The translations under genes were made by a program, and so were the position numbers. The notes beneath the pieces are model-generated. The model was not told where the DNA came from. It searched no databases and saw nothing but the letters and a program-made list of their open reading frames with translations. A DNA stretch of 63,728 nt, the filler included, from Folioceros fuciformis (lineage: Eukaryota): NCBI GenBank assembly GCA_049999805.1. It is 8 parts of 8 records of this genome, joined end to end, with 100 filler letters (N's around TTAATTAATTAA, not from the genome) between each part and the next. Parts side by side here need not be neighbours in the genome. Positions count along the whole stretch, not along the records: positions 1 to 3,704 come from JBNGIO010005653.1; 7 more parts are not named here. One strand, given 5' to 3'. Each line of letters begins with the position of its first letter. The first letter of the stretch is position 1. This document shows, one piece after another, positions 1,793 through 56,259 of this stretch.

Positions 1793-2024
1793 TGGTAGAA
1801 TAATATATATCCAGCATTAATAAATAGTAAATAAATATTTAGATGGGAACCGGTAGATTCCTACCGACATACACAAGGGTCGGCAACCTAAAACTAATCG
1901 CCGTACCTTCACACTCACAGGACACAACCGTTCTGTCCTTTTTTAAGGCCACACGGCCAAAGTAAAGTACATCTATCATTCTACATCTTGTTTGCTCTCG
2001 CTTCCTCCTCGATCCTAATTTATA
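1793..2024 (+). mobile_element. 5' LTR of copia copy A (ends approximate)
   Basis: Shares blocks with the minus-strand LTR at 38039-38293 (AGAATAAT, ATCCAGCATTA, GGTAGATT, CCACACGGC, CTCGATCCTA); followed by a PBS. Confidence 0.75.
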
Positions 2025-2036
2025 TGGTATCAGAGC
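2025..2036 (+). promoter_or_regulatory. tRNA-iMet primer binding site
   Basis: TGGTATCAGAGC directly after the LTR. Confidence 0.9.
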
Positions 2037-2040
2037 GGTA

Positions 2041-2217
2041 ATGGAGGATGTGTCGCCACCGCGCGAGAGCAACATCTGCAAGAGTTTGAATTGCATTAGA
2101 AATTTGAGCCTCAAAGAATTTCATGCAGCAATCTCTGCACTCCGAGTATCTCTTACCCGATTTGGCGCAATGGCCGACACCTTTCTTGCAAGCGCCGTTA
2201 GTCACTACTACGACTGA
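2041..2217 (+). CDS. Copia leader ORF1, 58 aa, unknown function (below the ORF-track length cutoff)
   Basis: Hand translation MEDVSPPRESNICKSLNCIRNLSLKEFHAAISALRVSLTRFGAMADTFLASAVSHYYD*; homologous to 36239-36418. Confidence 0.75.
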   Translation: MEDVSPPRESNICKSLNCIRNLSLKEFHAAISALRVSLTRFGAMADTFLASAVSHYYD

Positions 2218-2226
2218 CTGCGCGTG

Positions 2227-2968
2227 ATGCCGAGAGCGCGAGGTAGAGCCACGCATTTGCCTGCAGACCCCTTTCTTGGCTGTCGCAGTGTGCCAGAGGA
2301 CGTGCACAACCAGAATCTCCACCGGTTCTTTGCAACACTGCAATTTCAATCCCCTGCACACGCACATAGATCACAAGCGTCAGCATAGGTGTCAGGATAG
2401 GCGTCGCACAACCCAATTCCATCAGCGACACCTGAAACCAGATCCTCTTGCTGCCCTTAGATGCCAAGTTCGATAGAATATCCAGAACGCACGCATAATT
2501 CCTGAACAGAGAGCACGCGAGCTTGCACGTTCTAAGTCTTATGATTTCACAACATTTACCGCACCAGGTTATGACTTCGTGGCAGGATTGTCAGGTCTGA
2601 TTGAGGCACACACAGCCAGAGTGGATGCACTGTTGCGAAATCACTCAGAACAAGTTCGCCAGCGCTCTGTGCACCTGTCCAGTGAAATCACACGTCTTAG
2701 TACACACATTAGGACCCTTTCTGGGCACGTCAAGAATTTGCTGCAGATTTCCTTGAAGAATTCTAGTCTGGATCTTACCTCAGAAGGTGCAACGCCCACA
2801 CCGGTTCATATCTCGAACGCACCGATTCAAATCCCAGTCGCACCGGTTCAGACCTCGCAGCAAGAACAAGAGCAAGACACACAGCTTATGAAGATGATTC
2901 ATGCCATGCTTCTGTGCAGTACCGGGCAACCAAGATCACTTGAGCCTGAACCAACTAGAGCCTTGTAA
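2227..2968 (+). pseudogene. Copia leader ORF2, coiled-coil-like, disrupted
   Basis: Starts MPRARGR..LPADPF, frameshifts into KPDPLAALRCQVR*..LIEAHTARV..HIRTLSGHVKNL..PVHIS..LMKMI; homologous to 36429-37070 and 43226-43838. Confidence 0.7.
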
Positions 2969-2976
2969 GACTGTAC

Positions 2977-3704
2977 ATGCCAAGGGGCAAAAGTCGCGGT
3001 AGAAGTAGAGGCAACTCACCTTCACCTAACTTCTTAGATCCACTCTCTCTCTTTGCTGCTTCATCTTCACAAGGTAGCAACACTTCTAGAGTAGATCCAG
3101 CCCTTGATCGCATTCAGCGAGCACGTCTCAAGAAGGCACTAGCAGATGCACGTAAGAAGCAAGCTGAGTTAGTAGCAGCTACCCTTGCAAATCAGATCAT
3201 AGTAAACATGGTCACTCCAGTTATTACCAACCTGAAGATAGATTTCAAGGAAAAGGACCGCTTCTCAGGGTCCCAGTTTGATATTTGGTCACTTAGAGTC
3301 CAGACAATTCTAAAAGAGAATGGCCTGTGGGGAGTTGTCACGGGAACCGTACCTAAACCAGCTGGACCCACTGTGACCGCTGCACAAGTCGAAGCTTGGG
3401 AGAAACTGGACCTGAGAGCACTTGGAGTGATCCAGTCCGCATTGGATGGATCAATGATGTCTCATACACAAGATGTGGAGAATACAAAAGAAGCTTGGGA
3501 CTCACTCACACATACATATCAAGTAAGCAACGGCTCATTGCTGGTTGGAGCTACAAGAGCGTTCTATACTTGTAAAATGTGTGAGAATGAACCAATGGAT
3601 CAACATGTGGTGAAGTTTCGACAGTTACGATCGAAGCTTACCTCAAGTGGGACGAGGACCACGGAGATGCAGGCAGCAGTTGCCCTCCTTCTCTCTCTTC
3701 CTCC
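2977..3704 (+). CDS. Ty1/copia gag, truncated by gap
   Basis: FSGSQFDIWSLRVQTILKENGLWGVV..AWEKLDLRALGVIQ (UBN2-type gag); close to 42211-43215. Confidence 0.9.
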
Positions 3705-3804
3705 NNNNNNNNNNNNNNNNNNNNNNNNNNNNNNNNNNNNNNNNNNNNTTAATTAATTAANNNNNNNNNNNNNNNNNNNNNNNNNNNNNNNNNNNNNNNN
3801 NNNN

Positions 3805-4843
3805 CACCGCGTACCTATGACGAGACTTTCATGGCGTACCTCACTCAAGGAGATGCTACCTTTTCACCTCCCACTTCCGCGTCGCAAGTTGGGTCAAGCT
3901 ATGCCTTTTTCCCCTCGTACAGACAATAGTCATTTTTCTCTTCTCCACCACTCTTTTCCTCTTCTCCTCTACCTCCCCCTCCTTCCACTATTGCAAGCTT
4001 GCCATCTGCTACACCACCACCACCTGCTACCAAGTGGGAAGCTTGTGCCAAAGGAGTCGGATAATGCCACCACCACACAAACAAAAACTAGGCGCTCGTG
4101 AGGGGAATTGTGGAAGGACCATCACGTCATCAACCTCATTCATGTTCGAGGAGGATTACAAGTGGAGTTTGACAAAACTCCCAAACAAGGTATGGTCCCT
4201 CATCACCCTACAGTGATTGTGCTTCTCATGTCTGATCGTACTTCCTTCTCACCCGTTCTCCTCGCACTGTAGAGGCATTGATGTATGGAATAAGGTGGTA
4301 ATCAAGCTGTCTTCTATTTGTCCCGACTTTGACAAGAATGGAGAAGCATGCCGACAAAAATGGAAAACAATCTACAATGACTATAAGCACGATAAGGCCC
4401 TGAATGGTATTCTAGGAAATGCCAGGTCTGATAAGTGTCGTTGGTTTGATCTTGTAGACAGGTACATGGGAGAAAGAGCTCATGTGGTTTGTCCCCTAGC
4501 TTCAAGCCATGTGGATTCACATTCCGGCTCACAGATAAGTAGTTCACAGGAGGAAGGCCATGGAGACCCATCACTTGATCCCTCATGTTGTTCACAACCA
4601 CAAGAGCCAAGCGGTGTTGATGGGCATTCCAGTACACCTACTTCTCAAGGTATGCAAAATACGGAAGCTAAGAAGCGGTCAAGGTCTCGCAGTGATGGAG
4701 AAGTAGATAATCATATGTACACTATGCAGCTCTTAGAAAGCCTTACAAGGAATGTAGAAAATAGTGAAGGCCAAAAAATTGCTTCATTACAGAGCTTGAC
4801 TCAAGCCATCACTGTCTTGGTAAGTGCTCTAGGAAATAAGTGA
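3805..4843 (+). mobile_element. PIF/Harbinger Myb/SANT-like DNA-binding ORF (spliced; 5' part decayed)
   Basis: WKDHHVINLIHVRG..KQG, GT-AG intron ~4190-4274, then IDVWNKV..CRQKWKTIYNDYK..CRWFDLVD; convergent with a DDE transposase. Confidence 0.8.
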
Positions 4844-4897
4844 TATGAAATGATAGCATCTTTCTAGCCTTAAATTGTACTAACTCTCACTTACATT

Positions 4898-6260
4898 CTA
4901 ATCACTCTCACTCATGCTTTCGGTCATTTCATTGTCATTCGGAAAAGTGTTCTGGATTACCTTGTGTGTCTTTGCACTGTACATAGCATGTCCGATGGCA
5001 GAAATTCTTCGAACGCCTTCTACATACCCGGGAAGCTCAAGCTCATTTCTATCCCCGTTGTCATAAGTACCACCAGTATGAACTGAGGGCATGGCATTGC
5101 GAGCTCTTACTCCCCTGATTTCAAATAAAGATTCCCTTGCTACGTTACTTGCCTCTGTCTCCATATCACCAAGTACACAACTTTCACAATCATGAATTGC
5201 CTCTTCAAGCCATGCATTATCAAAACTATCCATTTCCTGTATGCACATGTTATGTAGGATAAGACATGCTTGCACCACCCTAGGGACATATTTCTGTTTC
5301 ATGTCCAGCCGTTTAAGAAGGCACCTGAAACGAGCTTTTAACATGCCAAATGCACGCTCTACAGCCATGCGAGTACTACTCTGGACAAAGTTCCAATTCT
5401 GCTGTACTAGTGAAAATCCATCCTTCGAGCCTTTATATGGTGTCAACATGTAAATACAAGGCCAGTACCCTGCATCACCCACCAAACTATATTGTCCTAG
5501 CTTACCACGATCACACATTTGCCCAAGTGTGGTACGCTTGAACAAGTTTCAATCATTAAGGCTACCTACCCAACTGAAATCATAATCCCATACATAGCAA
5601 TGGGTAGAAAACAGTAAGTTGTAGCAACTGAGAGTAAAAGCCCTTGTTGTTATAATAGTCTGCCTTGTTGACAAAGGGTCCTACGATCGGTATGTGGCTC
5701 CCATCCACAGCCCCCACAACAAATGGAATGCCTCTAATGGCTTCAAACTGGCTAGCATACTTCTAGAAGCATACGAGCCGTCGATGGCCATGAAATATAT
5801 GTATCATGTAAGGTTTGCACCAAAGCCGCACAAAATTGGTGAACACATACACAGACAGTAGATGTTCCATATCCAAAGAGATCCCCAATTACCTGCAATC
5901 TGTCACCTCCTGCAAGCATGAGTAAGGACATAGCAACTTTATGTTCAAGTGGCACAGCTTTCCTGCATGAAGTATCTCGAGTTGTGAGGACAGGATTGAG
6001 CTTGGCACAGATGGCGTGAAATGTGGCTTTTCAAATGCGCATTCTTCTCTTGAACATTGCATCACTGTATGAGCCCATGAGCTGTTGGTCAAAGAGTGAC
6101 TGGCTTCTCGCATATGTCCATATACTTCTGGAAATCAAAGAAGCCCAAGTATCTTGCAACTGCAAAACAACGCCCCAAGAACCCAACACCAAAACAACGC
6201 CCCAAGAACCCAACACCAATGCCAATGATGATGAATCAGCCACTTCAATGGCTACATACA
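4898..6260 (-). mobile_element. PIF/Harbinger DDE transposase (HARBI1-like), frameshifted
   Basis: LEHKVAMSL..IGDLFGYGTSTV, GAVDGSHIP, LVGDAGY, SSTRMAVERAFGMLKARF, ACLILHN spread over several frames. Confidence 0.9.
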
Positions 6261-6547: not shown

Positions 6548-7136
6548 AGTAATGGCATAAGTGAAATAAGGTGAAAGTTAAAAGTAGAAAGGTGAAAGCT
6601 AAATCTAGAGCTGTCTTGATGAAGAAGCAAGTATGCTTCTTACTGCCTTTGGAAAAAAAATGTGTGTTCCAGGCAAAACCTCCTAAGAAGGATGGAGTTG
6701 TAATGACCACTAGTATTCTAGGATGAGTGGTGTGTATCATTCCCAGTTTTAGCAGTGGCTTAGCTGTGGAGTATAAATAGGCCAGTGTTAGGGTCTTAAG
6801 GATACGGTGATACACTGATACACAAAGAGGCAGACAGTGAGAAGTCTAGCCTGGAGGCATAGCTGTGGAGGGCTTGAAGAGCAAGCTTGTCAGATAGAGT
6901 CGAGGGCAGTAGCCAGTGGGGCGTAGATCGCCAGACTCTTTGTAAGTATCTGGAATAAAGAGCAGCACCTAGAGGAGGTGGTCTGCGAGTCGTCAGTGGA
7001 CGGCGGGCTACTTGGAGCCTAGTGCTGAGTCGTGTGAGAGGGAGTGAGTGAATTGCAAGTGGAGCGCTGCGGAGTGTTTAGACGAGATTCGAGGCCGTTG
7101 CTTCCTTTTACGCTGCGTAAGGAAGGGGGCGTTACT
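6548..7136 (+). repeat. 5' LTR of gypsy element
   Basis: Near-identical to 11720-12308; starts AGTAAT, ends GTTACT; TATAAATA at ~6772, AATAAA at ~6954. Confidence 0.95.
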
Positions 7137-7140
7137 TAGT

Positions 7141-7152
7141 TGGTATCAGAGC
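7141..7152 (+). promoter_or_regulatory. tRNA-iMet primer binding site
   Basis: TGGTATCAGAGC 4 nt after the LTR end. Confidence 0.92.
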
Positions 7153-7254
7153 ATAGTCTATTCCTCCAAGATGGCTAAGCGCTAGAGGATGCAAATACGA
7201 GAGGTTTCCCCTAATCCCCCGCCTCAATAACTCGAGGAAAATCAAGGCAAGGAG

Positions 7255-8355
7255 ATGCCGCCTACCGACTCAGCAGGGCCATCCGGAGACAAATCTGAAG
7301 ATTGGAAGACGCAGATGATGGTCGCTTTACGACAAATTCTCCCCGAAATATTGCCGGAAGTTCTCCAAGATTTGACAGCATCTGGGAAAAAGGCAAGGAA
7401 GGATCCACAGCCTATAGCTCTACAAAATGAGGAAGCGGAAGACAATCAAGATCCTTTTCATATCTTCGAAGCAGTTCCGAGGGCAAATCTGAAATTGACC
7501 GTGCCAGATAAGTATGAGGGAGTAAGGGATCTACAAGCTATTGATTCCTGGATTTACTCTATTGAAAGCTATCTTGCTTCATCTGGCCTGGAGCCTAAGC
7601 ATTACTTAGGAACTGTGGGCAACTTTCTCAAAGGGTATGCTTTGGTGTGGTGGCGAAGTTATTGTGCTAATGTAGCCCAGGGAAATCGAGCACACACCAT
7701 CACAGACTGGGCATCTTTCAAAGAGGCCTTGAAGAAGCAGTTCCAACCTGCGAATGCTTTACGCTTGAGCCGGCAGCTGCTTGATAATATAAAGCAGACA
7801 GGTACCGTACGAGAATATGTAGGTACATTCAGTGAAGCTGTTATGCATTGTACTTCAATGAGTGAAGTTGACAAACTACATCGCTTCATGGTTGGTTTGA
7901 AGGACTGGGCTGCTAACAGAATTGAGTTGTATAGTCCAATGACCTTGGCAGAGGCCATAACAGCAGCAGATGCTATCTCAGATACCTTTCATTCCAACAC
8001 ATTCAACTCCTTAAGAAGATTTCGAGGTAATACCCGTGGACGGTATATGCAAACTAGGGTTTCTTCCAATAATGTTGCAAGAGGGACTCCCAAGGATAAT
8101 GAAAGGAGTACAGTTGTAAGAGGCAACTCCAGTGCGAGCTTCCGTGGGAGAAATCGAGGAGTGCGCAGGGGGCGCGGACCTCAGAGAACAGTGACAATGG
8201 GTTCTCGGAAAGGAGTTTGTTTTGCTTGTGGAGAGCCGGGACATTACGCGAATGAATGCCCCAATACTCAACAAACTTTGAATGTTGTTCAAGACAACCC
8301 ACAGCCCCAAAGACTCAGGATTACAGAAGTATCCGGATCTGAAAATCCCAAATGA
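7255..8355 (+). CDS. Gypsy Gag (retrotransposon gag domain plus CCHC knuckle)
   Basis: LKGYALVWW..WASFKEALKKQF..IKQTGTVREY; CFACGEPGHYANEC. Confidence 0.93.
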   Translation: MPPTDSAGPSGDKSEDWKTQMMVALRQILPEILPEVLQDLTASGKKARKDPQPIALQNEEAEDNQDPFHIFEAVPRANLKLTVPDKYEGVRDLQAIDSWIYSIESYLASSGLEPKHYLGTVGNFLKGYALVWWRSYCANVAQGNRAHTITDWASFKEALKKQFQPANALRLSRQLLDNIKQTGTVREYVGTFSEAVMHCTSMSEVDKLHRFMVGLKDWAANRIELYSPMTLAEAITAADAISDTFHSNTFNSLRRFRGNTRGRYMQTRVSSNNVARGTPKDNERSTVVRGNSSASFRGRNRGVRRGRGPQRTVTMGSRKGVCFACGEPGHYANECPNTQQTLNVVQDNPQPQRLRITEVSGSENPK

Positions 8356-11300
8356 CGGGATTGGCCACATGTTGCACAGGCTACATGTGGTGACTCTCAA
8401 GATGCTGAGGACAGCATTATTCATAGGGCAGGTGGAGAGCTCATGTATATAGAAGGATGTGTGAATCGTGAAGAAGCGAAGATGTTGCTTGATCTAGCAG
8501 CAACACATAATTTCATTTCTCCTGGCAGAGCAAGTAAGCTCGGTTTGACATGGGCTAGTATTTTAGAGCCATGTACAGTGAAACAAGCAAAAGGAAAGCT
8601 GCAGTTCTTAGGACAGCTAGAAAAAGTTCCTTTGCAGATAGGCAATTGGACTGGACAAGCAAGCTTCACAGTTGTAGATATGGATGATCATGAAATCATT
8701 TTGGGCTTAGAATGGATGAAGGCCAATAAGGTATGTGTAGACGTGGACTCACGCACCATACAGATCGTAGGAGATGAAAAGCACAAAGTGAGTTGTGCAG
8801 TCCTTGAGCATCAGCTTGGGCACAAGATTGATGAAGTCATCTCTAAGAAAGAGCTCAAGCGTTGTGTCAAAAATGGAGAGGAACTCTATTTGTTGGTGTT
8901 GCAAGGACTAGAAGATGGTCTTGAGATGGAATCTCAGAAGCAACCAAAGATTCCAAAGGAGATACAGGATGTCTTAGATGAGTTTAAAGACTTAATGCCT
9001 ACTGAGTTACCTCCTTTACCTCAACGGAGAGTTGTAGATCATGAAATTGATCTAAAGCCAGGAAGTGTACCGCCATCAATAGCGCCATATAGATTGTCGC
9101 TAGATGAGCTTCAAGAATTGAAGAGACAAATGTCTAACTTGTTAGCCAAGGGCTATGTTAGAGTCTCAAAATCCCTATTTGGTGCGCCAGTATTGTTTAC
9201 GCGAAAGAAGAATGGAGGATTAAGGTTATGCTTGGATTACAGAGCACTCAACCAGATAACAGTCAAAAATTCCTATCCTTTGCCAAGGATGGATGATATG
9301 TTTGACAGGTTGAAAGGTGCTAAGTATTTTACCAGACTGGATTTGATGGCTGGTTATTACCAGATTCGCATCGCAGAAGGACATGAATACAAAACTGCTT
9401 GTAGGACAAGGTATGGATCTTTTGAATTTCTAGTCATGCCATTTGGACTCACTAATGCACCAGCCACATTTCAGACTCTCATGAATAGTATATTCAGAGA
9501 TCTGTTGGATGAGTGTGTTGTGATCTATTTGGATGACATTTTGATATTCAGTTCTACCTTAGAGGAGCATGTCCAACACTTGAGGAAAGTGTTGGAAAGG
9601 TTAAGGGCAAATTCTTTGTTCTTAGCTATAACAAAGTGTGACTTTGTTAAGGAAGAAATAGACTTCCTTGGATTCATTGTCTCTGCTGATGGAATCAGGA
9701 TGGATCCTGGTAAGGTAAAAGCCATACAGAGTTGGCTGCCGCCAAGCAATGTGCATGAAGTGCGTATGTTTTTAGGATTGGCTAGCGTGTACAGAAGATT
9801 TGTACCAATGTTTGCCAAAATTGCTGCCCCATTAACTGATCTCTTGAAGAAGGTGAAGACATGGAAGTGGGATGAAGAATGTCAAAGGGCATTCGAGTTT
9901 CTCAAGTTGAAACTCAGCACTACCCCAGTACTAGCAATCTATGATCCAAAGAAATATATAGAGGTGTATACTGATGCGTCAGATACAGCTATTGGAGGAG
10001 TGCTTATGCAAGAAGGTAGGCCAGTGGCTTACGAATCAAGAAAGTTGCATGAACATGAGAGGAAATACCCCACATATGAGAAGGAGATGACAGCCGTCAT
10101 CAATTGTCTCAAGATTTGGAGGCACTATCTTCTCGGAAGATCTTTTGTGCTGTACACAGATAATGTAAGTACAAGCTTCTTTTCTAATCAACTACGACTA
10201 AATGCTAGACAAGCAAGATGGCAAGATTTCCTAGCGATGTATGATGTGGAGATTAAGTACAAGCCAGGGAAGGAAAATCTCGTGGCAGATGCTCTTAGTC
10301 GCAAGCAGGAGTTGAGTTTAATGTCTGTTTTTAAGCTGAAGAATCCTAAACTAGCTACAACGCGGATGGTGATTGAGCCAAGGGACACTCACACGCAGAT
10401 TAAAGAGGCTTATTTGCATGATCCATTAGTGCAAGATTGGATCAACGAGATGGAGCAACCGGGGTCTAAGTTTAAGCTTAGAAATGGCTTGTTAATGTTC
10501 AAGCAAAACAGGATTGTGATTCCTGATTCTCAAGAGTTGAGAAAAAAGTTGCTTGCAGAATGTCACGATGTGTTAAGTGCTGGTCATCGGGGAATTGACA
10601 CAACTTATGAGAAGTTGAAGAAGCTGTTTTACTGGCCTGGAATGTACAAACATACTGTAGAGTATGTGAAGTCTTGTGTAGACTGTCAGCAGGATAAAGT
10701 AGAGCAGACAAATCCACGAGGTTTGTTGCAACCCCTGCCTATTCCAAGTGGGCCTTGGAAGAGTATATCAATGGATTTTGTTATGCCATTGCCACCCAGT
10801 AATGGATACACAGCTATCATGACAGTTGTTGATAGGTTCAGCAAGCAAGCACACTTTATCTCCACGAAGAAGCAAGTGAAGGCTTTAGAAGTTGCTCAAT
10901 TGTTTAAGAAGCATATCTATGTGTTACATGGATTGCCTATGCAAATTGTGAGTGATAGAGATCCCAGATTCACAGCGGAAATTTGGCAACAGCTTATGAA
11001 GAGCTTGGGAGTGCAACTATGTCTAAGTACAGCATATCACCCTGATACAGATGGATCTACAGAAAGAGTAAACAGAATCCAAGAGGAATACTTACGACAC
11101 TATGTACAAATGGACCAAAGGAACTGGAGTAATCATCTTGAGGATGCAGAGTTTTGTTATAACAATACTGTACATAGCTCCACAGGCTATACACCTTTTC
11201 AGATGACAGGTAACGAAGCAATGGACGCAGTTTCCATGTTGAATGCTGACGTGTTTGAGACAGCAGCAAGAGAACCACGTGAATTTATTGAGCAGTTAAG

Positions 11301-11709
11301 CGCCAGGCATGAAATTGCTAAGAGGATTTTGGCCAAAGCTCAAAACAGGCAAAAGAAGTTTGCTGATAGGCACAAGAAAGAGGCAGAATTTCAAGTGGGT
11401 GACAAGGTTTGGGTAAAGTTGAAACACTTCCCAGTACCTCAAGGATTGTCCCCAAAGTTAAGGCCTAAGTATGGAGGTCCTTTCGTAGTTCTAAAGCGCA
11501 TTGGGAATGTGGCTTACAAACTACAACTGCCTAATTGGATCTTCTCTCATGATGTGTTTCATGTCTCTTTGCTGAAACCGTTTGTGATTTCGAAAGAGAA
11601 TGACGACATGAACAGATCTTGTCTGGGTTTCACTTCAAGATGTGCAACAAGGATCATGGATGATCTCACGTTATACTGCAGGTCATTGAGGACAATGACA
11701 TCTTCCTAG
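8356..11709 (+). CDS. Gypsy Pol (PR-RT-RNase H-INT), in frame with gag
   Basis: LLDLAATHNF protease, YLDD RT, TDASD RNase H, HHCC zinc finger, ISMDF..SDRD..E integrase, YGGPF; frame open from 8356, first ATG at 8443. Confidence 0.95.
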   Translation, partial: RDWPHVAQATCGDSQDAEDSIIHRAGGELMYIEGCVNREEAKMLLDLAATHNFISPGRASKLGLTWASILEPCTVKQAKGKLQFLGQLEKVPLQIGNWTGQASFTVVDMDDHEIILGLEWMKANKVCVDVDSRTIQIVGDEKHKVSCAVLEHQLGHKIDEVISKKELKRCVKNGEELYLLVLQGLEDGLEMESQKQPKIPKEIQDVLDEFKDLMPTELPPLPQRRVVDHEIDLKPGSVPPSIAPYRLSLDELQELKRQMSNLLAKGYVRVSKSLFGAPVLFTRKKNGGLRLCLDYRALNQITVKNSYPLPRMDDMFDRLKGAKYFTRLDLMAGYYQIRIAEGHEYKTACRTRYGSFEFLVMPFGLTNAPATFQTLMNSIFRDLLDECVVIYLDDILIFSSTLEEHVQHLRKVLERLRANSLFLAITKCDFVKEEIDFLGFIVSADGIRMDPGKVKAIQSWLPPSNVHEVRMFLGLASVYRRFVPMFAKIAAPLTDLLKKVKTWKWDEECQRAFEFLKLKLSTTPVLAIYDPKKYIEVYTDASDTAIGGVLMQEGRPVAYESRKLHEHERKYPTYEKEMTAVINCLKIWRHYLLGRSFVLYTDNVSTSFFSNQLRLNARQARWQDFLAMYDVEIKYKPGKENLVADALSRKQELSLMSVFKLKNPKLATTRMVIEPRDTHTQIKEAYLHDPLVQDWINEMEQPGSKFKLRNGLLMFKQNRIVIPDSQELRKKLLAECHDVLSAGHRGIDTTYEKLKKLFYWPGMYKHTVEYVKSCVDCQQDKVEQTNPRGLLQPLPIPSGPWKSISMDFVMPLPPSNGYTAIMTVVDRFSKQAHFISTKKQVKALEVAQLFKKHIYVLHGLPMQIVSDRDPRFTAEIWQQLMKSLGVQLCLSTAYHPDTDGSTERVNRIQEEYLRHYVQMDQRNWSNHLEDAEFCYNNTVHSSTGYTPFQMTGNEAMDAVSMLNADVFETAAREPREFIEQLSARHEIAKRILAKAQNRQKKFADRHKKEAEFQVGDKVWVKLKHFPVPQGLSPKLRPKYGGPFVVLKRIGNVAYKLQLPNWIFSHDVFHVSLLKPFVISKENDDMNRSCLGFTSRCATRIMDDLTLYCRSLRTMTSS

Positions 11710-11719
11710 TGGGGAAGAG

Positions 11720-12308
11720 AGTAATGGCATAAGTGAAATAAGGTGAAAGTTAAAAGTAGAAAGGTGAAAGCTAAATCTAGAGCTGTCTTGATGAAGAAGC
11801 AAGTATGCTTCTTACTGCCTTTGGAAACAAAATGTGTGTTCCAGGCAAAACCTCCTAAGAAGGATGGAGTTGTAATGACCACTAGTATTCTAGGATGAGT
11901 GGTGTGTATCATTCCCAGTTTTAGCAGTGGCTTAGCTGTGGAGTATAAATAGGCCAGTGTTAAGGTCTTAAGGATACGGTGATACACTGATACACAAAGA
12001 GGCAGACAGTGAGAAGTCTAGCCTGGAGGCATAGCTGTGGAGGGCTTGAAGAGCAAGCTTGTCAGATAGAGTCGAGGGCAGTAGCCAGTGGGGCGTAGAT
12101 CGCCAGACTCTTTGTAAGTATCTGGAATAAAGAGCAGCACCTAGAGGAGGTGGTCTGCGAGTCGTCAGTGGACGGCGGGCTACTTGGAGCCTAGTGCTGA
12201 GTCGTGTGAGAGGGAGTGAGTGAATTGCAAGTGGAGCGCTGCGGAGTGTTTAGACGAGATTCGAGGCCGTTGCTTCCTTTTACGCTGCGTAAGGAAGGGG
12301 GCGTTACT
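11720..12308 (+). repeat. 3' LTR of gypsy element
   Basis: Follows PPT AGTGGGGAAGAG; followed by CCACC. Confidence 0.95.
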
Positions 12309-35230: not shown

Positions 35231-36238
35231 ATGCGGCTTAGTAGGGTTTTTCTTTTCTTTTCTTTTTTGTCATTTTTCTATTTGATTTTTACTAATTAGG
35301 TTAGTTGACCAGGAAATAGTTGCTGTGGTTAGTAGAGTGGTTATAGGTTTGGTACCAGGCCTAAGGAAACTTAGCTTTGGTACCATATCTTAGGTTTGGC
35401 TTAGTCTTAGGTCCGGGCATAGGTTTGGTTTTCAACCTGGTAATATTTCATTAATATGTAATTCACTTAATTCTTTTAGATAATATTAAATAATTGAATA
35501 ATTAAATACTAGTTTGAATAAGGTGGCTACCTCACAAAGGGAATCTATGCAAGTGAGGTGGTGTCTCACCATTAAGGGATAGGCTAGAAGCCAGCTAGGT
35601 CGGCTTGTAGGGCATAGCAGTAAGAGGAACATGAATACCAGCAATGAGGTAATGACGGTCTAGGTTGAGGAGTCAGAGCCCTGGCCATGGTGAGTTGTGG
35701 CATGGGACACCACCAAAACACAACACTGTGGAGACAATGGCCATGATGGTGCACTTGGTGGAGTGAGCCCAGCCAGATGCGAGATTGAGGGTACATTGGC
35801 GGCTATCCAAGCAAGGTTACGGGATTTGGGACTTTATGACAGAAAATCGCACAAGCAGAGATCAGCATGGGGCACTGGCTATCACATTGGGCTCTGTTAG
35901 CAAAGAGCAGAACTTGATCCTTAGGCTCTACTAGCTGAGAGCAGAACTCAATCCTTTGGTCTAGACGCAGGGGTGCTCGTGTGTCAGCTGCTGACCAAGA
36001 GAGGATGGGAGATTGAGCCATACAACAAGAGGCCTGGACACGAGCATGAGTTCCATAAACGTGAGTTGCTGGAGAGCGCATGCTAATGATCAACAAGTAG
36101 GATGTCATATCCGGCAGGAAGGCACTGCGAGCTGCCGATCGAGACCATTGCAGAGCTAGCTAAGGGCAATTGGGCTTGAACCAGTTGGGAATCGTGAGCA
36201 AAATTCTCGATCCTCTCGATCTTCATGGTATCAGAGCC

Positions 36239-36418
36239 ATGATGGACTCTGCCGGGCTTCCAATCATCTGCGCAACCTGCAACAGCGCAAATTGCGTCAA
36301 GAACTTGCCACATCAACAATTTTGCGCTGTAATTGCTACATTGAAGGCTGCGCTCACAACATTTGGAAGTATGGCAGACGTCTTCCTTGCTAGCGCTGTT
36401 GATCACTACTACTCGTGA
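36239..36418 (+). CDS. Copia leader ORF1, 59 aa
   Basis: MMDSAGLPIICATCNSANCVKNLPHQQFCAVIATLKAALTTFGSMADVFLASAVDHYYS*; homolog of 2041-2217. Confidence 0.75.
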   Translation: MMDSAGLPIICATCNSANCVKNLPHQQFCAVIATLKAALTTFGSMADVFLASAVDHYYS

Positions 36419-36428
36419 TCTCAGCGCT

Positions 36429-37070
36429 ATGCCGAGAGCTAGAAGCCAGAGAAACCCCCTGCCATCATACCCCTTTGCAGGCAGATCTGGTGAAACAATT
36501 GAATCACAGCATAGGAGACTGAACCATTTCTTCACGAATCACTATCAAGTCCTTGCATGCCCTACACACACACACAGCGTAGGTCTCATTAGGCAACATT
36601 CTCAGCCCAACCCCTTGCACAATTTACATCGTTAAGTTAGACAGCAAATCGCACACGCTCGTGACATTTCTGCACAAGCTGAATATCAACTGCAGGCACG
36701 TTCTAGTATTTGTAACACTTGTACTAGAGACCTTAATTCTTTTCCATGCCCGTCAGACAACTTGCTCATTGACATTTATGATCTTGTAAAATCTCAAACT
36801 GTCAAGGTTAGGTAGCACATCTCAGAGTTGACCCACAAGGTTCAAGCACAAAATAGACACATCACCTGCCTGTCACATCAGATCAATAATCTCTGCCTTG
36901 ACAAACCTACGTCTCTTCAAGGAAAGACAACTGTACCTGTTCATATCTCACCCGAAGAACAAAAACCGCAGTCAGATTTAGAGAAAATGATCAAAGTCAT
37001 GCGGGAGGCATTTGCTAAGGACTCTGAACACCTAACTGCACTGGAGGAAGAGGCCGGGAGACCACTCTGA
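36429..37070 (+). pseudogene. Copia leader ORF2, ~213 codons, two in-frame stops
   Basis: Single frame MPRARSQRNPLPSYPF..PNPLHNLHR*VRQQI..KVR*HISELTHK..PVHISPEE..LEKMIKV..LTALEEEAGRPL*. Confidence 0.72.
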
Positions 37071-38038
37071 GCAAGCGGCATATGTCAAGCAGTGGAAGAG
37101 CTCGAGGAAATCCAAATCCTTCACATAGAGCTCGTGGTCGAGGTAGGGGCAGAGGTTCGAGGTTATGGGAGAGGAATTCATTACGGTAGTGGTCCTTCCA
37201 TGCCTATAGACCCTCTCTCCCTTTATCAAACCCAGAGCCAACCAACCTCGTCCCAATCAAGTAACACTGTACCTACAAATTTGCACACTGCACAGGTTCA
37301 ACATGTTGCACAAGCTGGAGCAGTAGTTCAAAACACAGAAGCTGCACGTCTTGCACAAGCCACAAGGGCTGTGCATTAGCGGCACAAGTAGTGGGCACAA
37401 TGGCTGGTCAACAGCACAGTAGCACAGTTACCAACAACACTACTGTTCACAATCTCAAGATAGATTTCAAAGAACGTGACCAATTTTCAGGCACTCAATT
37501 TGACATATGGGGACTTAGGGTTCAGACTATCCTGAAGGACAATGATCTTTGGGGTGTTGTTTCCGGGACTATCCCTAAACCTACTGCTACTGCTCCACTT
37601 GCTGATAGAGAGGCATGGGCCAAACTAGATCTCTGTGCCCTAGGAGTCATACAATCAGCATTGGACGGTATAATGATGCACCATACTCGAGAGGCAAAAT
37701 CCACAAAGGCTGTTTGGGATGCACTTTCACAAGTCTACCAACTTGTTAATGGATCCTCACTTGTTAGTGCAACGTTGACATGACTTCTATAACTGTAAAA
37801 TGAGAGAGCATGACTATGTAGAGCAGCATATTATTAAATTCAGGACCTTGAGGTCCAAATTACCTCAAGTGGAACCAAGACCACGGAGATGCATGCTGCG
37901 GTGGCTCTGCTTCTCTCTCTTCCTAAAAGCTTCCGCACATTCGTCAGCAATTAGAGTTCAGCACTCCGGCAAGCAGCCCAAGCTGCACAAGTAGCTCAAC
38001 CAGGAAGCCAACCAGCTGTTACACTTTCAGATGGTATC

Positions 38039-38293: not shown

Positions 38294-41200
38294 CTCTCAC
38301 TTAGCCAACATTATGCTGACTAGGGTTTGTAACCATAGGTGAAAAAAAACGGCGCCGAGCTAGGTCACAGTCGATGGCGGCTTGCGCAAGGCTTTTCTCA
38401 CCTTACAGTTGGAGCTCTGTTCAGATGTTTGCCAAACTGCTTTGATAGGTTTATGTACGTCGGCTGTGACTTCACGAAAGATGGCCACCAGATACTTCGT
38501 TATGGTATGCTCCCTTGTGCTTACAATTGGTCCTCCCACTGCAGCCTTTGTAGGTAGATCCTTCTGACTGCATGCCTTTAATGTTCATGTGCAGAGCCTG
38601 GTGGCGTTGCACTACAAGGATGCCATCCAGAAGGTTCTATCCGGCTTGAGATGCTGCAGAGTGAGAGTCTGGTTACTAGCTAGGTGGACAGTGCAGGTTT
38701 CTTCTAGGACTCTGGGTCCTCCATTAACCCCATTGCAGCTGCAAATTTCTCATGCTTCTCTCTAGGAAGTGCTTTTGTGAGCAAGTCTGCAATATTGTCA
38801 TGTGTTGACACAAACTGTAGGTTAGCATGTCCATCAGTGATCACTTGTCGTATAAAATGGTGCTTGATGTCCATATGTTTTGTCCTGGCATGCATAAGAG
38901 GGTTTTGTGCTAGAGCTATCGCTGATTGGTTATCACTCAGAAGGAGTGTTGGTGCTTCCTGAGGTTCACCGAGAGATGCTAGCAATTCCCTGCCATGAAT
39001 GATATCTTGTGCTGCTGTAGTTGTAGAGATGTACTCTGCCTCTGTCAAGGACAGAGCTACCACTGACTACTTCTTTGAATGCCAAGCAATAATTTTGGAT
39101 TGTGATTCATCTTGTCCCAGCATTAAACAGTGTGCAAATATTGAGCGTCGGCTGTCAGAATCGGCTGCCCAGTTGGCGTCACAATAGCATGTAAGGAGCA
39201 GGCACTGTGGTCTTTGTTTGTACAGTAGGCCAAGATTAAGCGTACCTCCAAGATAAAGCATACACCGTTGAACAGCCGTCCAATGAGCTGCACCATAATT
39301 GGAGAGGAACTGTGAAGTCACCCCCACAGCATGTGAAAGCTCCGAGCGTGTCCAATTCTGGAAATAGATAAGTACTCCCACTGCTGGTCTGTAGGGTACT
39401 TTCTCCATTTGCATACGCTCCTTCTCAGTTTGTGGACACTGTTCCAGTGTAAGTTTTTCGCCCGTTGCCATGGGTGTTGCTGCAGGTTTTGCATTCTGCA
39501 TTCTGAACCGTGCTAGGACTTGGACAACAAATTGAGCCTGGTGTATAAAAATTGTGTGCTTGCTCAGGTTTTGACGGATCTGAATACCTAAGAACCAAGT
39601 AAGCTGCCCCAAATCCGTCATGGAAAACTCTGAAGTAAGGATACCCTTGACCTTATTCATTTGAGACGGACTACTGGATATTATTACTGCATCGTCTACG
39701 TATAAGGCCTGGTAGGCTACCCCATTCTTATCACAGAGTTGATAGACATTTGAGTCTGCACTACTTTGCACAAAACCACACTTCTGGAGGTACGTGTCTA
39801 TTCTTTTGTACCACTCTTGTGGTGACCGCTTTAAGCCATACATTGTTTTAATTAGTCTACATACCTTGTTTGGGTTCTTGGGGTCAACGTACCCCTCTGG
39901 TTGACGCATATAAATGGTTTCCTCTAGGTCTCCGTTGAGGAATGCAGTTTTAACGTCCATGTGCTGTAGAAGGTAATCGTGTTGAGCAGCAATTGCCAGC
40001 AGAGTGCGGATGGATGTTGCCCTGACCACTAGAGAAAAAGTCTCTTGGTAGTCAAGTCCTTCTACTTGGCTATATCCGCGTGCAACCAGTCTGGCTTTGT
40101 ATCGTGCAATAGTACCATCAGCAGCTTGTTTCAGTTTGAACACCCACTTGCAAGTCACTGCCTTCCGGCCAGGTGGTAAGTCCTCCAGAACCCAAGTTAT
40201 GTTGTCCATGATGGATTTGTACTCAGATTCTATTGCAGCATGCCACTTTTCCTTGTCGGGAGAGTTTATGGCTTCCTGATATGACTGGGGCTCTCCCAAG
40301 TCAAGAGGCATGTCTTCCTGTACCAAGAAACTCTGATATGTAAGTGGAGGCTGAATCCATTCATCCGGGGATGCTGCATGATGCCTTGAGCTGCGCCGAA
40401 GGACTGGCACTTCTTCAGGTACGTCCTCCTCCTGTGGTATAGGATCATCTGGAGATGAATCAGCATCTAATAGATTAGGCTGATGCTCACTAACCTCTTC
40501 AACTTCATCTTCAGGGAAGTCAGATGGTTCATCTTCACTGTCACTATCAGGGGGTACTACTGGTTGGGAGGACTTCTGAGTAGTAGTAAGATCGCCATCA
40601 TCACCTTGCTCAGCATCAGAAGGTTGAGACTGCATGTCTAACTGCGACTGTGTCAATGCAGGTGTAAGTAACAATCTCTTGTTAAACACTACACTGCGTG
40701 CATGAGTAGTTGTCCTAGTGACAGGATCTAGGAGTTTGTAGCCTTTAATGCCTTCAGTGTACCCTATGAACACAAACTTTCTTGCTTTGTAGTCTAACTT
40801 GACTCTTTGTTTTTCTGCAAGGTGTGCATATGCCGGGGAGCCGAAAATGCGTAAGTGATTGATACGGGGTTTGTCACTAGTCCAACGCTCAAAAGGTGTG
40901 CAGCGCGGGAAAGCCTTAGTGGGGAGCCGGTTCGTAATGTAGGCTGCAGTAGCAACGGCTTCACCCCAATAGCTTTGTGGGAGGCCAGCAACTTTCAGCA
41001 TGGACTTGGCTGCAGATTGCAGATGCTTGTTATTTATTTCAGCAAGCGGATTTTGTGAGGAAATATAAGGTATGGTCAGCTGCCTTTGGATTCCCAGCGC
41101 CTTGCAATAATCTTGAAAATCAGCTGAGATATACTCCCCGCCGTTGTCACTGCGCAGAGTTTTGAGTTGCTCTCCAGTTTGCCGTTGTGCAAACGAAACA

Positions 41201-43225
41201 TATTCTTTAAAACAGCCAAGCGTATGGCTCTTGTGTTTGAGGAAGTAGACAACCACATAGCGGCTCCAGTCATCAATAAAAGAGAGTATGTATAAGGCTC
41301 CACCCCAGGTAGCTGTGGACATAGGACTGCAAAGATCAGAATGAACAACCTCGAGAAGCTTGGTGGCTCGTGTAGGATTGTCATCCGTATAGGGGAGTCG
41401 CTGATGCTTCCCGAACACACATGCCTCACAGAATTACTTGTCCACAAACTGAAGCATGAATTTTTCTCTGTACAGAGTTGTGCTGGCCACCATTTGTTTG
41501 ATCTTCTCGAAATTAGCATGGCCTAGATAGCAATGCCACAGCATAGCTGCATCCTTGTCTTTCTGCTTGGTGTCCTGACTCATGTTGACTTGTGCACGTG
41601 TAGGAGGTAGACCTAGCTTAGAGGTGACATTAAGTTGATACAGGTCGTGGAATGGTGCCCCACTTGCTACTAACTTATTTTTATACTGTGGATCAGTGAC
41701 TGTACATTGTACCCCTGTAAAGGACACATTCAACAAATGCTGGGTAGTCAACTTGCGAACTGACACTAGGTTCTTCACCATTGAAGGTACGTGAAGAACA
41801 TCCTCTAAGACCAAGGTAGTTTTGTCAAATAGAGTGATAGAGACTAACCCTATCCCCTCTATTTGCATACCACTGTCATCTCCAAGCAATACGAATTGTC
41901 CAGGTGGCAATGGCTTGTACTCTATGAAAGACTTTTTGCAGTGACAAATGTGAGAAGACGCACCAGAATCTATAAACCATACATGCTTATTGGATGCGGT
42001 GGAGACCATGCATACAGCTAGTAGAGTGTTTGCCTTACGGTGTACCACATTGGATTCAGGTGGTGCCGATCTTCTGGCTTCGCCGGCCTTCTTCTTTCTG
42101 CAGTCGGCTTCCCAGTGTCCAGGAATGAGACACCAGTTGCAAGGCCCCTTCTTTTTAGCTAGAGCTTGAGGTGAACATTTCTTGTAAGTAGCGTTGTTGT
42201 TGTTTGGTGTCTAGGACTGCCTTGGTGGTTGTCTCCTGGGCCCCTTGTTTGCGTAGAGCGCCCTTGTGGATGACTCTCCTCGGGAGGAGGTGCCGCCTTG
42301 ATTGACAATTCTGGTGGACTCCTCCTCGAGAAGAGCTCCAATCACTTCAGATAATGTGACAGTAGGAGCCTGTCCTGCTGATGTATTCTGGGCTGCAACA
42401 CGCAGTGCAGAACTCAGGTTGCTTACAAAAGTCCGGTAGCTGGGAGGAAGAGAGAGAAGAAGAGCAACTGCCGCTTGCATCTCCGTGGTCTTTGTTCCGC
42501 TTGAGGTAAGCTTAGACCTCAGTTGTCTAAACTTCACCACATGTTGCTCGACTGATTCATGTTCACGCATCTTGCAGTTGTAGAATGCTCTTGTGGCGCC
42601 AACCATTGAAGAGCCATTGTTAACTTGATAGGTATGCGTGAGAGAGTCCCATGCTTCCTTGGTGGTAGCCACATCTTGTGTATGTGACATCATAGATCCA
42701 TCTAGTGCAGACTGGATAACAGCAAGAGCTCGAAGATCGAGCTTCTCCCAAGCCTCAATTGCAGTAGGAGTAGAAGTAGCAGCAGGAGGTTTGGGTACAG
42801 CACCAGTGACTACCCCCCACAGCCCATTTTCCTTGAGAATAGTTTGTACTCTAAGAGACCAGATGTCGAACTGAGTGCCAGAGAAGCTGTCCTCCTTAAA
42901 GTCTACTTTCAAGGTAGTGACAACAGGTACTTGATTGGCCATTGTATTGATTACTTGTGATGCAAGTGTTTGTGCGACCAATGCTGCTTGGTCTCTACGT
43001 GTATCTGCTAAGGCTTTCGCAAGACGTGCTCTTTGAATGGCAGCTAGTGTTGGATCTACAGTATCTGAACTACCTTGTGATGAGGACTGGGAATAAAGTG
43101 AGAGTGGATCTTCAGGTAATGTGTTAGATACAGGTATGACACCCCTGCCTGTGCCTCTGACTTTTCTAGTACCTTTCGGAACCTTACTTCCACGTCCTCG
43201 GGCGTTGTATGACATGTACAGGGGT

Positions 43226-43838
43226 TCACAAAGGTAGTGCAGCCTCAGCTTCAAGGGCTGCCAGCTGCTCCACGTGGCTTGGATAATATTTCTGAATAAC
43301 CTTGATCATCTTCATGATTGGTCGTTCTTCTTCTTCTTCTTGTCGAGATGTGAATTGGTGCACTTGTGATATGAACCGGTGCGAGTGAAGAAGACTCAGG
43401 TGCAGAATTTTTCAAGGATAACACTGTAAGATTCTTAATCTGTCCTGTCAGTGTTCTAATGTGAGTATTAATGTTGTTAATCTCATTGGACAGGTTTACG
43501 AATCGCTGCCACACCTGTGCAGCGTGAGTCGCAAGTAGATTGTGGACTTGAGCTGTCTGTGACCTAATCAAATGGAGCACCTCTATCAGCGACCTATCGG
43601 ACAGTGCGGGTGATGCTTCAGTCCTAGGATGTGCAAACTGACGTCTTCTTTGTTCAGAAAAATCGCGTGATTCGTGAAACCTTTGCCTAATCTGGCTTCT
43701 AGGTGAGACAGGAGAGTCAGATTTCTGGTGTCGCTAACAGGCTTGTGCTGTGTGACGCCTATACTAACTCTTCTTGACTTTGTGCGTGTGTAGAGGATAG
43801 AGATTGCAATGCGTGTCAAAGAAGCAATGCAGATTCTG
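43226..43838 (-). pseudogene. Copia leader ORF2 remnant of copy C
   Basis: RSQIRQRFHESRDFSEQ..LIRSQTAQV..HIRTLTGQIKNL..PVHITS, frameshift, then IMKMIKV..EQLAALEAEAALPL*. Confidence 0.72.
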
Positions 43839-44319
43839 NNNNNNNNNNNNNNNNNNNNNNNNNNNNNNNNNNNNNNNNNNNNTTAATTAATTAANNNNNN
43901 NNNNNNNNNNNNNNNNNNNNNNNNNNNNNNNNNNNNNNCCGAAGCCGCCCTGCAAGAATCGGAAACGAAGGATGTTCAGATCTACGCACAAACAGTTTCA
44001 CGTGATTGCAGTGTGCATGCGAGCAGTACTTCGTCTTCACTTCGTCTTCGTCTGCATTTGGTGATCTGGTCAGTTATACCTTAAATCGCCATCTTGACAA
44101 GTGAGAAAAACGGTTTTCAAGAAGTATGTAATCAGCTGCGACTTTTGTGTTTGACTGCGGTTTTGGGCATAGTTTAAAATCCTAGCTTCCTTGTGTGTAA
44201 GAGTGCTATGGAGAGCCATACGGCCATGGAAAAGGCTTTTCAGGGTTCAGTGCAAAGGTCTATCGTGGAAACCCTAAATGGGGTTCTTCCTTCTTTTTTT
44301 TTTTTGCCTTCTCTTGGTA

Positions 44320-44642
44320 TTCATTGATTGCAGAGAGTATCTGCCAACACTTATTCATTGATTGCAAACAGTATTAGCCAATGTAATCATTGCGAAGTTG
44401 ATTGCAAACATATTAGCCCATGCAATCATTGTAAAGTTGATTGCAAACGGTATTAGCCAATGCAATCATTGCGAAGTTGATTGCAAACAATATTAGCCAA
44501 TACAATCATTGCAAAGTTGATTGCAAACAGTATTAGCCAATGCAATCATTGCTTCGCGAAGAGTATTAACCAATGCAATCATTGCTTTGCAGAAGTATTA
44601 GCCAATGCAATCATTGCTTCACAAAGAGTATTGGCCAATGCA
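44320..44642. repeat. ~40-bp then ~30-bp tandem array
   Basis: TTGATTGCAAACAGTATTAGCCAATGCAATCATTGCGAAG units at ~44358, 44398, 44437, 44477, 44517, followed by shorter units. Confidence 0.92.
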
Positions 44643-51062: not shown

Positions 51063-51162
51063 NNNNNNNNNNNNNNNNNNNNNNNNNNNNNNNNNNNNNN
51101 NNNNNNTTAATTAATTAANNNNNNNNNNNNNNNNNNNNNNNNNNNNNNNNNNNNNNNNNNNN

Positions 51163-56130: not shown

Positions 56131-56259
56131 GGGTGAGCTGACTATTGTAGGGGAGCGATAAACGTAGCTGACTAGGCTCAGAGGGGAGCGATTCCGGGGA
56201 AGCCTACAGCAACCGTGGGATTCATGTGGCCACGATACATGTGAGCGGGTGCCAGGTAG

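Follow-up and report, generated by a model that had tools for sequence, protein, structure and literature searches.

A small open reading frame (ORF) of 58 or 59 codons, situated directly after the primer-binding site (PBS) in a Ty1/copia retrotransposon family of Folioceros fuciformis, is very probably a coding ORF under selection, to judge from how its copies have diverged. We propose, with a probability of roughly 0.4, that it is a translated upstream ORF (uORF) that most likely acts in cis, in the way of the class I conserved-peptide uORFs (CPuORFs), and gates the translation of a polycistronic copia RNA. The underlying comparison is between two copies from one genome, chosen in a first-pass annotation for their conserved look.

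The analyzed window is a stretch of 63,728 nucleotides built as a chain of contigs, with N44-TTAATTAATTAA-N44 linkers at the joints. Transposon remains occur throughout. Three copies of one Ty1/copia family lie inside it: copy A on the plus strand (~1797 to 3704, the right limit being a contig end), copy B also on the plus strand (~36226 to ~38050), and copy C on the minus strand (43838 down to ~38040). Position 43838 is again a contig end, which is why copy C has lost the small-ORF region; the small ORF could be examined in only two copies. It is present in both of the copies that span the region, a small number, and a tblastn search of the window with the small ORF found A and B only at E values up to 10. 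Copies A and C are the closer pair, with 76% identity in gag, and B is ~46 to 49% identical to either. The long terminal repeats (LTRs) and U5 regions of A and B could not be aligned with each other, and the sole nucleotide-level match between the two leaders (77% identity between 2170-2237 and 36371-36439) runs across the small-ORF stop codon and the spacer behind it.

The family is Ty1/copia. Its gag is of the copia type: Pfam recognized Retrotran_gag_2 in copies A (E = 6.9e-21) and C (E = 1.5e-29), together with DUF4219, and the gag of copy B aligns to both. In copy C, Pol_BBD and gag_pre-integrs are followed on one strand by rve and then by RVT_2 (E = 6.7e-70), which is the copia domain order; this order was read in copy C alone, A and B being cut off. 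The body of copy C (39067 to 43838, minus strand) holds part of a larger ORF that precedes gag (here ORF-X), the start codon of gag at 43215, and a pol in which Pol_BBD, rve, and RVT_2 are recognized. The start of gag in copy A spans 2977 to 3704 on the plus strand, carries Retrotran_gag_2 and DUF4219, and is cut by the contig end, and gag of copy B (37082 to 37924, plus strand) is decayed by stops and frameshifts. The 5′ LTR of copy A (1797 to 2024, plus strand, start approximate) has a TATA-like site at 1804 and adjoins the PBS; its homologue in copy C is the 3′ LTR, which lies on the minus strand (~38284 down to 38040).

Directly 3′ of an LTR-like stretch, copies A and B each carry an exact match to the pattern TGGTATCAGAGC, at 2025 to 2036 and 36226 to 36237, respectively, both on the plus strand; no copy has both LTRs in one contig. 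We take this sequence to be the PBS, pairing with the 3′ end of initiator tRNA-Met. With up to one mismatch, it occurs four times in the window against 0.30 expected, a count reached in none of 100 shuffles. In both copies, the final A of the LTR and the TGG of the PBS together form an ATG, which opens a five-codon mini-ORF. In copy A, this mini-ORF reads MVSER-stop (2024 to 2041, plus strand), and its TAA at 2039 to 2041 overlaps the ATG of the small ORF (UAAUG). In copy B, it reads MVSEP-stop (36225 to 36242, plus strand), and its TGA at 36240 to 36242 lies inside an ATGATG that comprises both start codons of the small ORF.

The small ORF occupies 2041 to 2217 in copy A (58 codons plus TGA) and 36239 to 36418 in copy B (59 codons plus TGA), both on the plus strand and both where the first-pass annotation had placed them. 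It had also been said to open within 4 nt of the PBS, and the gap is indeed 4 nt in A and 1 nt in B, where a second ATG lies 4 nt away. By BLASTP, the two peptides are identical at 28 of 57 positions without a gap (E = 1e-20 for the pair). Identity is very uneven along the peptide, with 2 of the first 12 residues shared and 26 of the last 46; the latter count, ungapped and ending at a common stop, reproduces the earlier one. The TGA stops are aligned, and the run TCACTACTAC is identical between the copies at every codon position. As a sense-strand ORF between the PBS and gag, the small ORF necessarily lies on the full-length genomic RNA. Its ATG has an A at −3 and a G at +4 in both copies, a strong context. 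The ATGs of ORF-X and gag are without a G at +4, and four of the five sites read have a pyrimidine at −3, the exception being ORF-X of copy A with a G. Only two ATGs stand ahead of the small ORF in copy A, one near the TATA-like site (1843) and one where the LTR meets the PBS (2024); in the homologous 3′ LTR, that of copy C, there is none.

To gauge selection on the peptide, we compared the copies by the Nei-Gojobori method, which gave 26.9 changes over 38.2 synonymous sites and 46.1 over 135.8 nonsynonymous sites (pS = 0.705; pN = 0.339; P = 6.6e-5 by Fisher's test). The ratio was as low in 2 of 2,000 column permutations. The resulting pN/pS of 0.48, or about 0.2 with Jukes-Cantor correction, is rough, the synonymous sites being saturated. 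Codons 13 to 42, which lie outside the hairpin described below, gave a pS of 0.877 and a pN of 0.304 (Fisher P = 8.9e-6), and the contrast was weaker over the last 16 codons (0.56 versus 0.22; P = 0.10). The other two sense frames had ratios of 1.08 and 0.97, and the last antisense frame had 0.97. The antisense frame that has its third positions in common with the small ORF reached 0.60 but contains four stops per copy. A further antisense ORF, considered as the selected frame, was rejected: it is open in both copies, yet its pN/pS is 0.96. For gag of the same pair, pS was 0.79 and pN 0.37 (ratio, 0.47). By these substitution counts, constraint on the small ORF has matched that on gag ever since A and B diverged, which was long enough ago for silent sites to have become saturated. 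The gap-free stretch of 57 codons is likewise unexpected under neutrality, because the flanking LTR and U5 sequences of the same copies are unalignable.

The first-pass annotation had described a selected accessory microprotein in a type of leader that is normally noncoding. Selection on the peptide stands, from the single A/B pair, but the small ORF is no lone gene in a leader that is otherwise noncoding: it comes second in a chain of four abutting ORFs, a conserved hairpin overlaps it, and we lean toward action in cis rather than in trans.

The third of these ORFs, ORF-X, opens with a conserved ATGCCGAGAGC (MPRAR) 9 nt (A) or 10 nt (B) past the small-ORF stop. It is present in all three copies and broken in each of them. 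In copy A, it spans 2227 to 2968 (plus strand; ~247 codons; TAA at 2966 to 2968) and is interrupted twice, by the loss of frame at a 2-nt gap (near 2335) and by a TAG in frame (2474 to 2476). In copy B, it spans 36429 to 37070 (plus strand; 213 codons; TGA at 37068 to 37070), with in-frame stops at 36633 to 36635 and 36813 to 36815. The part retained in copy C (43838 to 43226, minus strand) has TAG codons at 43766 to 43764 and 43736 to 43734 and a frameshift near 43330. The ORF-X stop is aligned in all three copies, and the gag ATG follows 8, 11, and 10 nt downstream in A, B, and C. With a pN/pS of 0.57 between A and B (Fisher P = 1e-10; 165 codons) and 0.59 between A and C (P = 5e-7), ORF-X shows a coding signature and is likewise under selection. 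A model of an ORF-X fragment is mostly one long helix, with residues 34 to 99 at a pLDDT above 90. No Pfam family matched ORF-X, a search of proteins of similar length gave 827 candidates with none at E values up to 0.001, a search of longer proteins gave none among 7,997 scored candidates, and the best Atlas score, 0.78, was too low for use.

We considered two routes from ORF-X to gag and rejected both. Leaky scanning through ORF-X finds no ATG depletion in A (9 ATGs versus 10.0 expected) or B (6 versus 8.9) and a marginal one in C (4 versus 9.7; P = 0.03). A programmed frameshift is at odds with the spacers of 8, 11, and 10 nt, with a different frame relation in C, and with an overlap of just 10 nt.

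The 3′ end of the small ORF is folded, by prediction, into a three-tier hairpin. In copy A (2184 to 2235, plus strand), its energy is −20.9 kcal/mol (z = −3.2; stability equaled in 1 of 200 shuffles), and in copy B (36386 to 36436, plus strand) it is −25.7 kcal/mol (z = −6.2; 0 of 200). Within the copy A hairpin lie the final ~11 codons and the stop (2215 to 2217) of the small ORF, the 9-nt spacer, and the ORF-X ATG. The inner stem places the stop codon in the 3′ arm and closes on a loop with the Tyr-Tyr codons, and the basal stems pair codons 49 to 52 with the spacer and the start region of ORF-X; in copy B, the ORF-X ATG (36429 to 36431) is itself paired in the basal stem. All 14 pairs are kept in both copies, two of them through changes on both sides. 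Controls in which the alignment was slid had 25 to 46% of cells paired, and a shuffle control (120 of 500) is powerless with two sequences. The ORF-X/gag junction has no such structure in any of the three copies (z = +1.1 to +1.8). We found no sense-strand partner for the hairpin loop in those parts of A and B that the window contains: complements of the loop with up to one mismatch number 13 in the window versus 10.9 expected, and those within the copies are the loop itself.

The sequence shows the ORF and the selection on it, the hairpin, how closely the ORFs are spaced, and the contexts of their AUGs; beyond this, we infer that the small ORF may be translated, that ribosomes may stall or reinitiate at its end, and that the leader may thereby act as a switch. 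As the first AUG in a strong context on the RNA, adjoining the PBS, the small-ORF start should capture most scanning ribosomes. These would then translate the conserved C-terminal part and reach a fixed stop within the hairpin, with the weak-context AUG of ORF-X 9 to 10 nt downstream. Termination in the hairpin, possibly slowed by the nascent peptide, would set the share of ribosomes that proceeds to ORF-X and gag. With the start codon directly beside the PBS, the loading of ribosomes and the binding of primer tRNA or Gag would be mutually exclusive, and the RNA could thus be switched between translation on the one hand and packaging and reverse transcription on the other.

An ordinary eukaryotic ribosome reinitiates poorly after 58 codons and a spacer of 9 to 10 nt. 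Passage to gag by scanning is also not obviously provided for, because ATGs within ORF-X are undepleted in A and B. What favors a gate acting in cis is the pattern of a variable N terminus, a conserved C terminus, and a fixed stop. According to the excerpt of PMC4330380 available to us, class I CPuORFs have a conserved C terminus and a conserved stop position, and in several of them the nascent peptide exerts its effect from within the exit tunnel while the ribosome is at the stop codon. The small ORF matches them in its leader position, its peptide-level conservation (in one pair), and its C-terminal conservation with an aligned stop. Against a role in cis, the conserved stretch of 46 residues is longer than the 30 to 40 residues that the exit tunnel holds (PMC4330380, excerpt).

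That excess over the tunnel (PMC4330380, excerpt), together with a conserved helix face, makes a serious rival of a free-standing microprotein of 58 residues, helical and probably oligomerizing, that would act in trans and have the leader merely as its location; we consider it possible, if on balance unlikely. Such a protein may help the element, for instance together with ORF-X, in assembling particles, in evading silencing, or in reinitiation. This explanation is served equally well by the selection evidence. Nine of the 10 heptad positions 24, 27, 31, 34, 38, 41, 45, 48, 52, and 55 are invariant and form a hydrophobic face, and the opposite phases have two of nine and three of 10 positions invariant; the P value of 0.019 for this conservation is before correction for the seven phases among which this is one. 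An AF2 model with two sequences as input has a helix over residues 24 to 57 at a pLDDT of about 80, and the adjoining ORF-X is itself a long helix. As modeled, a helix with a conserved hydrophobic face would be no less expected of a folded protein than of an arrest peptide. Plant LTR retrotransposons with additional 5′ ORFs of unknown function offer a precedent (PMC11728184 and PMC7264820, in the parts available). A free-standing protein leaves unexplained the fixed stop in the hairpin, the strong and weak AUG contexts, and the bias of conservation toward the C terminus. A metal-binding motif, C-x2-C-x4-C...H, had also been suggested; it is confined to copy B, as copy A is without the first Cys. 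A C-x4-C pair and a His at the C terminus are all that the two copies have in common, and at position 28 copy A has H and copy B has C.

Searches of protein libraries turned up no relative of the small peptide, which counts against a protein acting in trans. Neither copy matched a Pfam family, and a word-indexed search of 5.8 billion protein clusters, covering proteins of 31 to 104 residues only, gave zero candidates. A HMMER profile run against 1.84 billion representatives gave two matches at E values up to 0.001, which we discounted; each is a long protein of tandem repeats, scored over 7 stretches in one case and 18 in the other. By Pfam, the clusters, and the profile, the peptide thus remains without a match to a described protein family. 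The ESM Atlas had no match good enough to use. Among metagenome contigs, 438 pattern matches with the small-ORF alignment and 264 with the gag alignment yielded no confirmed case, nor did 231 and 132, respectively, among viral contigs. These blank searches say little, because the libraries searched are poor in plant repeats.

The junctions between the four ORFs suggest a further, bolder explanation, which we regard as improbable: that every ORF of a polycistronic RNA, from the mini-ORF through the 58-codon ORF and a coiled-coil-like ORF-X to gag-pol, is read by serial termination-reinitiation at overlapping or 8- to 11-nt junctions. The small peptide would then be a dedicated factor tying ribosome traffic to primer binding and packaging, either as an arrest peptide or as a helper in trans (for reinitiation or silencing evasion). 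If so, it would be a translation strategy undescribed for LTR retrotransposons.

An RNA signal alone, be it a structure for packaging, dimerization, or primer placement beside the PBS with the open frame as a by-product, is unlikely. It would account for the hairpin with its two compensatory pairs over the 3′ end of the small ORF, for the 77% leader match across stop and spacer, and for the invariance of TCACTACTAC at every codon position, and the read depth of diverged contigs is highest in the bin from 2185 to 2248. Retroviral leaders do pair such signals with uORFs, as in RSV, where the O3 stem-loop lies just past uORF3 (PMC5035971, in the part available). It does not explain the codon periodicity, which is strong at codons 13 to 42, outside the hairpin, and the codon signature is absent from the other five frames. 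Beyond the 3′ hairpin, moreover, the folds of A and B have few pairs in common, and neither leader has an Rfam match at E values up to 1.

Chance and ascertainment would make of A and B two relics of one ancestral leader, open by luck, with the best-looking frame picked from a single pair; this we hold to be very unlikely, although the evidence is indeed one pairwise comparison. That the frames stay open amid decayed neighbors had been offered as evidence of selection, and this argument did not hold. Neighboring codons have 2 lesions in ~490 in copy A and at least 5 in ~460 in copy B, and from these ORF-X and gag lesions we estimate a chance of ~0.4 that both 58-codon frames escape. The Fisher value of 6.6e-5 and the 2 of 2,000 permutations, however, still hold once corrected for six frames and for the few ORFs that were candidates, and chance does not readily give an alignable, gap-free stretch of 57 codons, with start and stop aligned, beside an unalignable LTR and U5.

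Public reads from three DNA runs of one sample gave contigs, among them a nearly identical relative of copy A that shows 22 differences between 1813 and 2773. Among the differences listed, four fall in the small ORF (2051, 2113, 2179, and 2199); three are nonsynonymous and one is synonymous, a ratio that would suit chance, and none creates a stop. No indels in the small ORF occur among the differences listed for the contigs of these runs. All four sites have T or A in the window and C or G in the contigs, and one of the three replaced residues, residue 4, is that of copy B in the contig variant. These differences have the pattern that neutral decay would leave in a dead copy and speak neither for nor against selection in an active lineage. 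One run guessed to be RNA gave a single 45-nt match, which lies in gag.

That stop-codon readthrough or frameshifting extends the small ORF into ORF-X, of which it would then form the N terminus, is scarcely credible: the frames are equal in copy A, with TGA and three codons between them, but it fails because the 10-nt spacer of copy B puts ORF-X in another frame. The required shift differs between the copies, and conservation marks the ORF-X ATG with its first five codons (MPRAR) as a start.

A cis-acting uORF, our preferred reading, has its closest likeness in the class I CPuORFs of plant mRNAs and in the uORFs of fungal arg-2 and cytomegalovirus gpUL4, which are also leader ORFs of tens of codons. 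The small ORF shares with class I CPuORFs its C-terminal amino acid-level conservation and its conserved stop (PMC4330380, excerpt). CPuORFs belong to host or viral genes and have orthologues across species, whereas the small ORF lies in a retrotransposon and is compared between two diverged copies in one genome. Its conserved part is longer, at 46 residues, and repression is putative here.

The leader also resembles systems of termination-reinitiation and shunting in its close stop and start, its junction hairpin, and its Met-tRNA primer site on a retroelement RNA (PMC5902531, in the part available). Such systems include the calicivirus TURBS, a short ORF with a stem in plant pararetroviruses, and UAAUG with a hairpin in non-LTR retrotransposons (PMC5902531, same part). 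In a shunt, the short ORF stops ahead of a stem that is very large, with the PBS downstream, whereas here the stop is inside a small hairpin and the PBS lies upstream. We therefore rejected a shunt of the pararetrovirus type, given that the small-ORF stop sits within the 3′ arm of a hairpin of −21 to −26 kcal/mol.

Additional 5′ ORFs (5′aORFs) of plant LTR retrotransposons are known mainly from Ty3/gypsy elements such as Tekay and number thousands across both superfamilies (PMC11728184 and PMC7264820, as far as the parts available extend). The first-pass annotation had named Ogre/Tat, which are Ty3/gypsy, as carriers. Like the 5′aORFs in these sources, the extra ORFs here are in sense, lie between the 5′ LTR/PBS and gag, are lineage specific and partly helical or disordered, and have no known domain (PMC11728184 and PMC7264820, same parts). 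The 5′aORFs of these sources, by the same parts, mostly have hundreds of residues and are found mostly in Ty3/gypsy, whereas here there are two extra ORFs in a Ty1/copia element. ORF-X fits this loose class better than the small ORF does, and we regard it as a new member. The small ORF stands apart in falling below the usual length cutoffs, starting at the PBS, and having a CPuORF-type pattern; the cutoff of a sunflower ORF survey, for instance, is 300 nt (PMC11728184, in the part available), and a 58-codon ORF falls below it. We found no description of a small ORF right after the PBS in copia elements among open-access papers and preprints, a set without the primary aORF surveys. Leaders of LTR retrotransposons are annotated as noncoding, and the length cutoffs of ORF surveys miss frames of 58 codons. 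With the small ORF and ORF-X, the family has a three-gene 5′ architecture in a superfamily usually drawn with gag-pol only.

Among retroviruses, the RSV leader is the nearest parallel. Its uORFs have fewer than 20 codons, and, to our knowledge, no importance is attached to the sequence of their peptides; the small ORF, unlike them, has 58 codons and peptide-level selection, and another large ORF separates it from gag. As with RSV uORF1 to uORF3, short ORFs lie near the PBS on the genomic RNA of a retroelement, and a stem-loop is found at one stop (PMC5035971, in the part available). For RSV, the uORFs and the O3 stem-loop with the packaging signal have been proposed to balance translation against packaging (PMC5035971, same part). 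If our preferred reading is true, this copia element would set translation versus packaging of its RNA through the small ORF, much as has been argued for avian retroviruses.

Between gag and the small ORF, the 58/59-codon leader ORF that follows the primer binding site (PBS), all three copies of the Ty1/copia family in the window carry a second extra reading frame of 213 to 247 codons, ORF-X (copy A, 2227-2968; copy B, 36429-37070; copy C, 43838-43226 on the minus strand). Comparison of copy A with copies B and C gave pN/pS values of 0.57 to 0.59 (Fisher, 1e-10 and 5e-7), which indicates purifying selection on ORF-X. Stops or frameshifts disrupt the frame in all three copies. No homologues of ORF-X were found across all libraries searched, and its predicted model is, for the most part, one long helix.

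Upstream, a 5-codon mini-ORF runs through the PBS itself (2024-2041 in copy A and 36225-36242 in copy B), its ATG being made by the LTR end together with the PBS. In both copies the mini-ORF stop overlaps the start codon of the small ORF, as UAAUG in copy A and as a UGA within AUGAUG in copy B, despite differing local sequence.

Copy A was also compared with public DNA runs of one sample. Among the 18 differences listed between positions 2051 and 2593 of copy A and the contigs of runs X1 and X2, which include a close relative of it, copy A has T or A where the contigs have C or G at 14 sites, and the reverse holds at 4; this skew is the one that decay by deamination leaves. These contigs lack copy A's in-frame stop at 2474-2476. 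In the third run, X3, differences from window positions 1801-3700 were dominated by C>T (110 places) and G>A (92), far above all other kinds of change, a profile like that of a bisulfite-treated library.

The window consists of separate contigs chained together by seven linkers (3705-3804, 27491-27590, 33422-33521, 43839-43938, 51063-51162, 58806-58905, and 61484-61583), each with two 44-N runs; the sole linker core read (43883-43894) is the 12-nt sequence TTAATTAATTAA. Features spanning linkers, namely, the gag of copy A and the 5′ end of copy C, are therefore not contiguous in the genome.

The window also holds DNA-transposon remains (4217-5548 and, on the minus strand, 49132-50480): a PIF/Harbinger-type DDE_Tnp_4/Plant_tran fragment with an adjoining ORF weakly matching Myb_DNA-bind_4, and a MULE/SWIM transposase fragment. 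The match to Plant_tran points to a plant as the source of the DNA. In the stretches between the elements, tandem repeats with units of ~60, 102, and 41 nt occur at 44340-44640 (minus-strand view), 55570-56132, and 27644-27806. The sole match of a 610-codon open frame (29055-30887, minus strand) is a weak one to nSTAND3 (E = 2e-4, below the Pfam cutoff).

A Ty3/gypsy element at 6548-12019 looks young and near-intact, with 300-nt LTRs 99% identical to each other, an open gag (7255-8355), and an adjoining open pol frame of 1,117 codons. Its PBS, TGGTATCAGAGC at 7141-7152, is identical to that of the copia copies, but the interval from there to gag contains no ORF.
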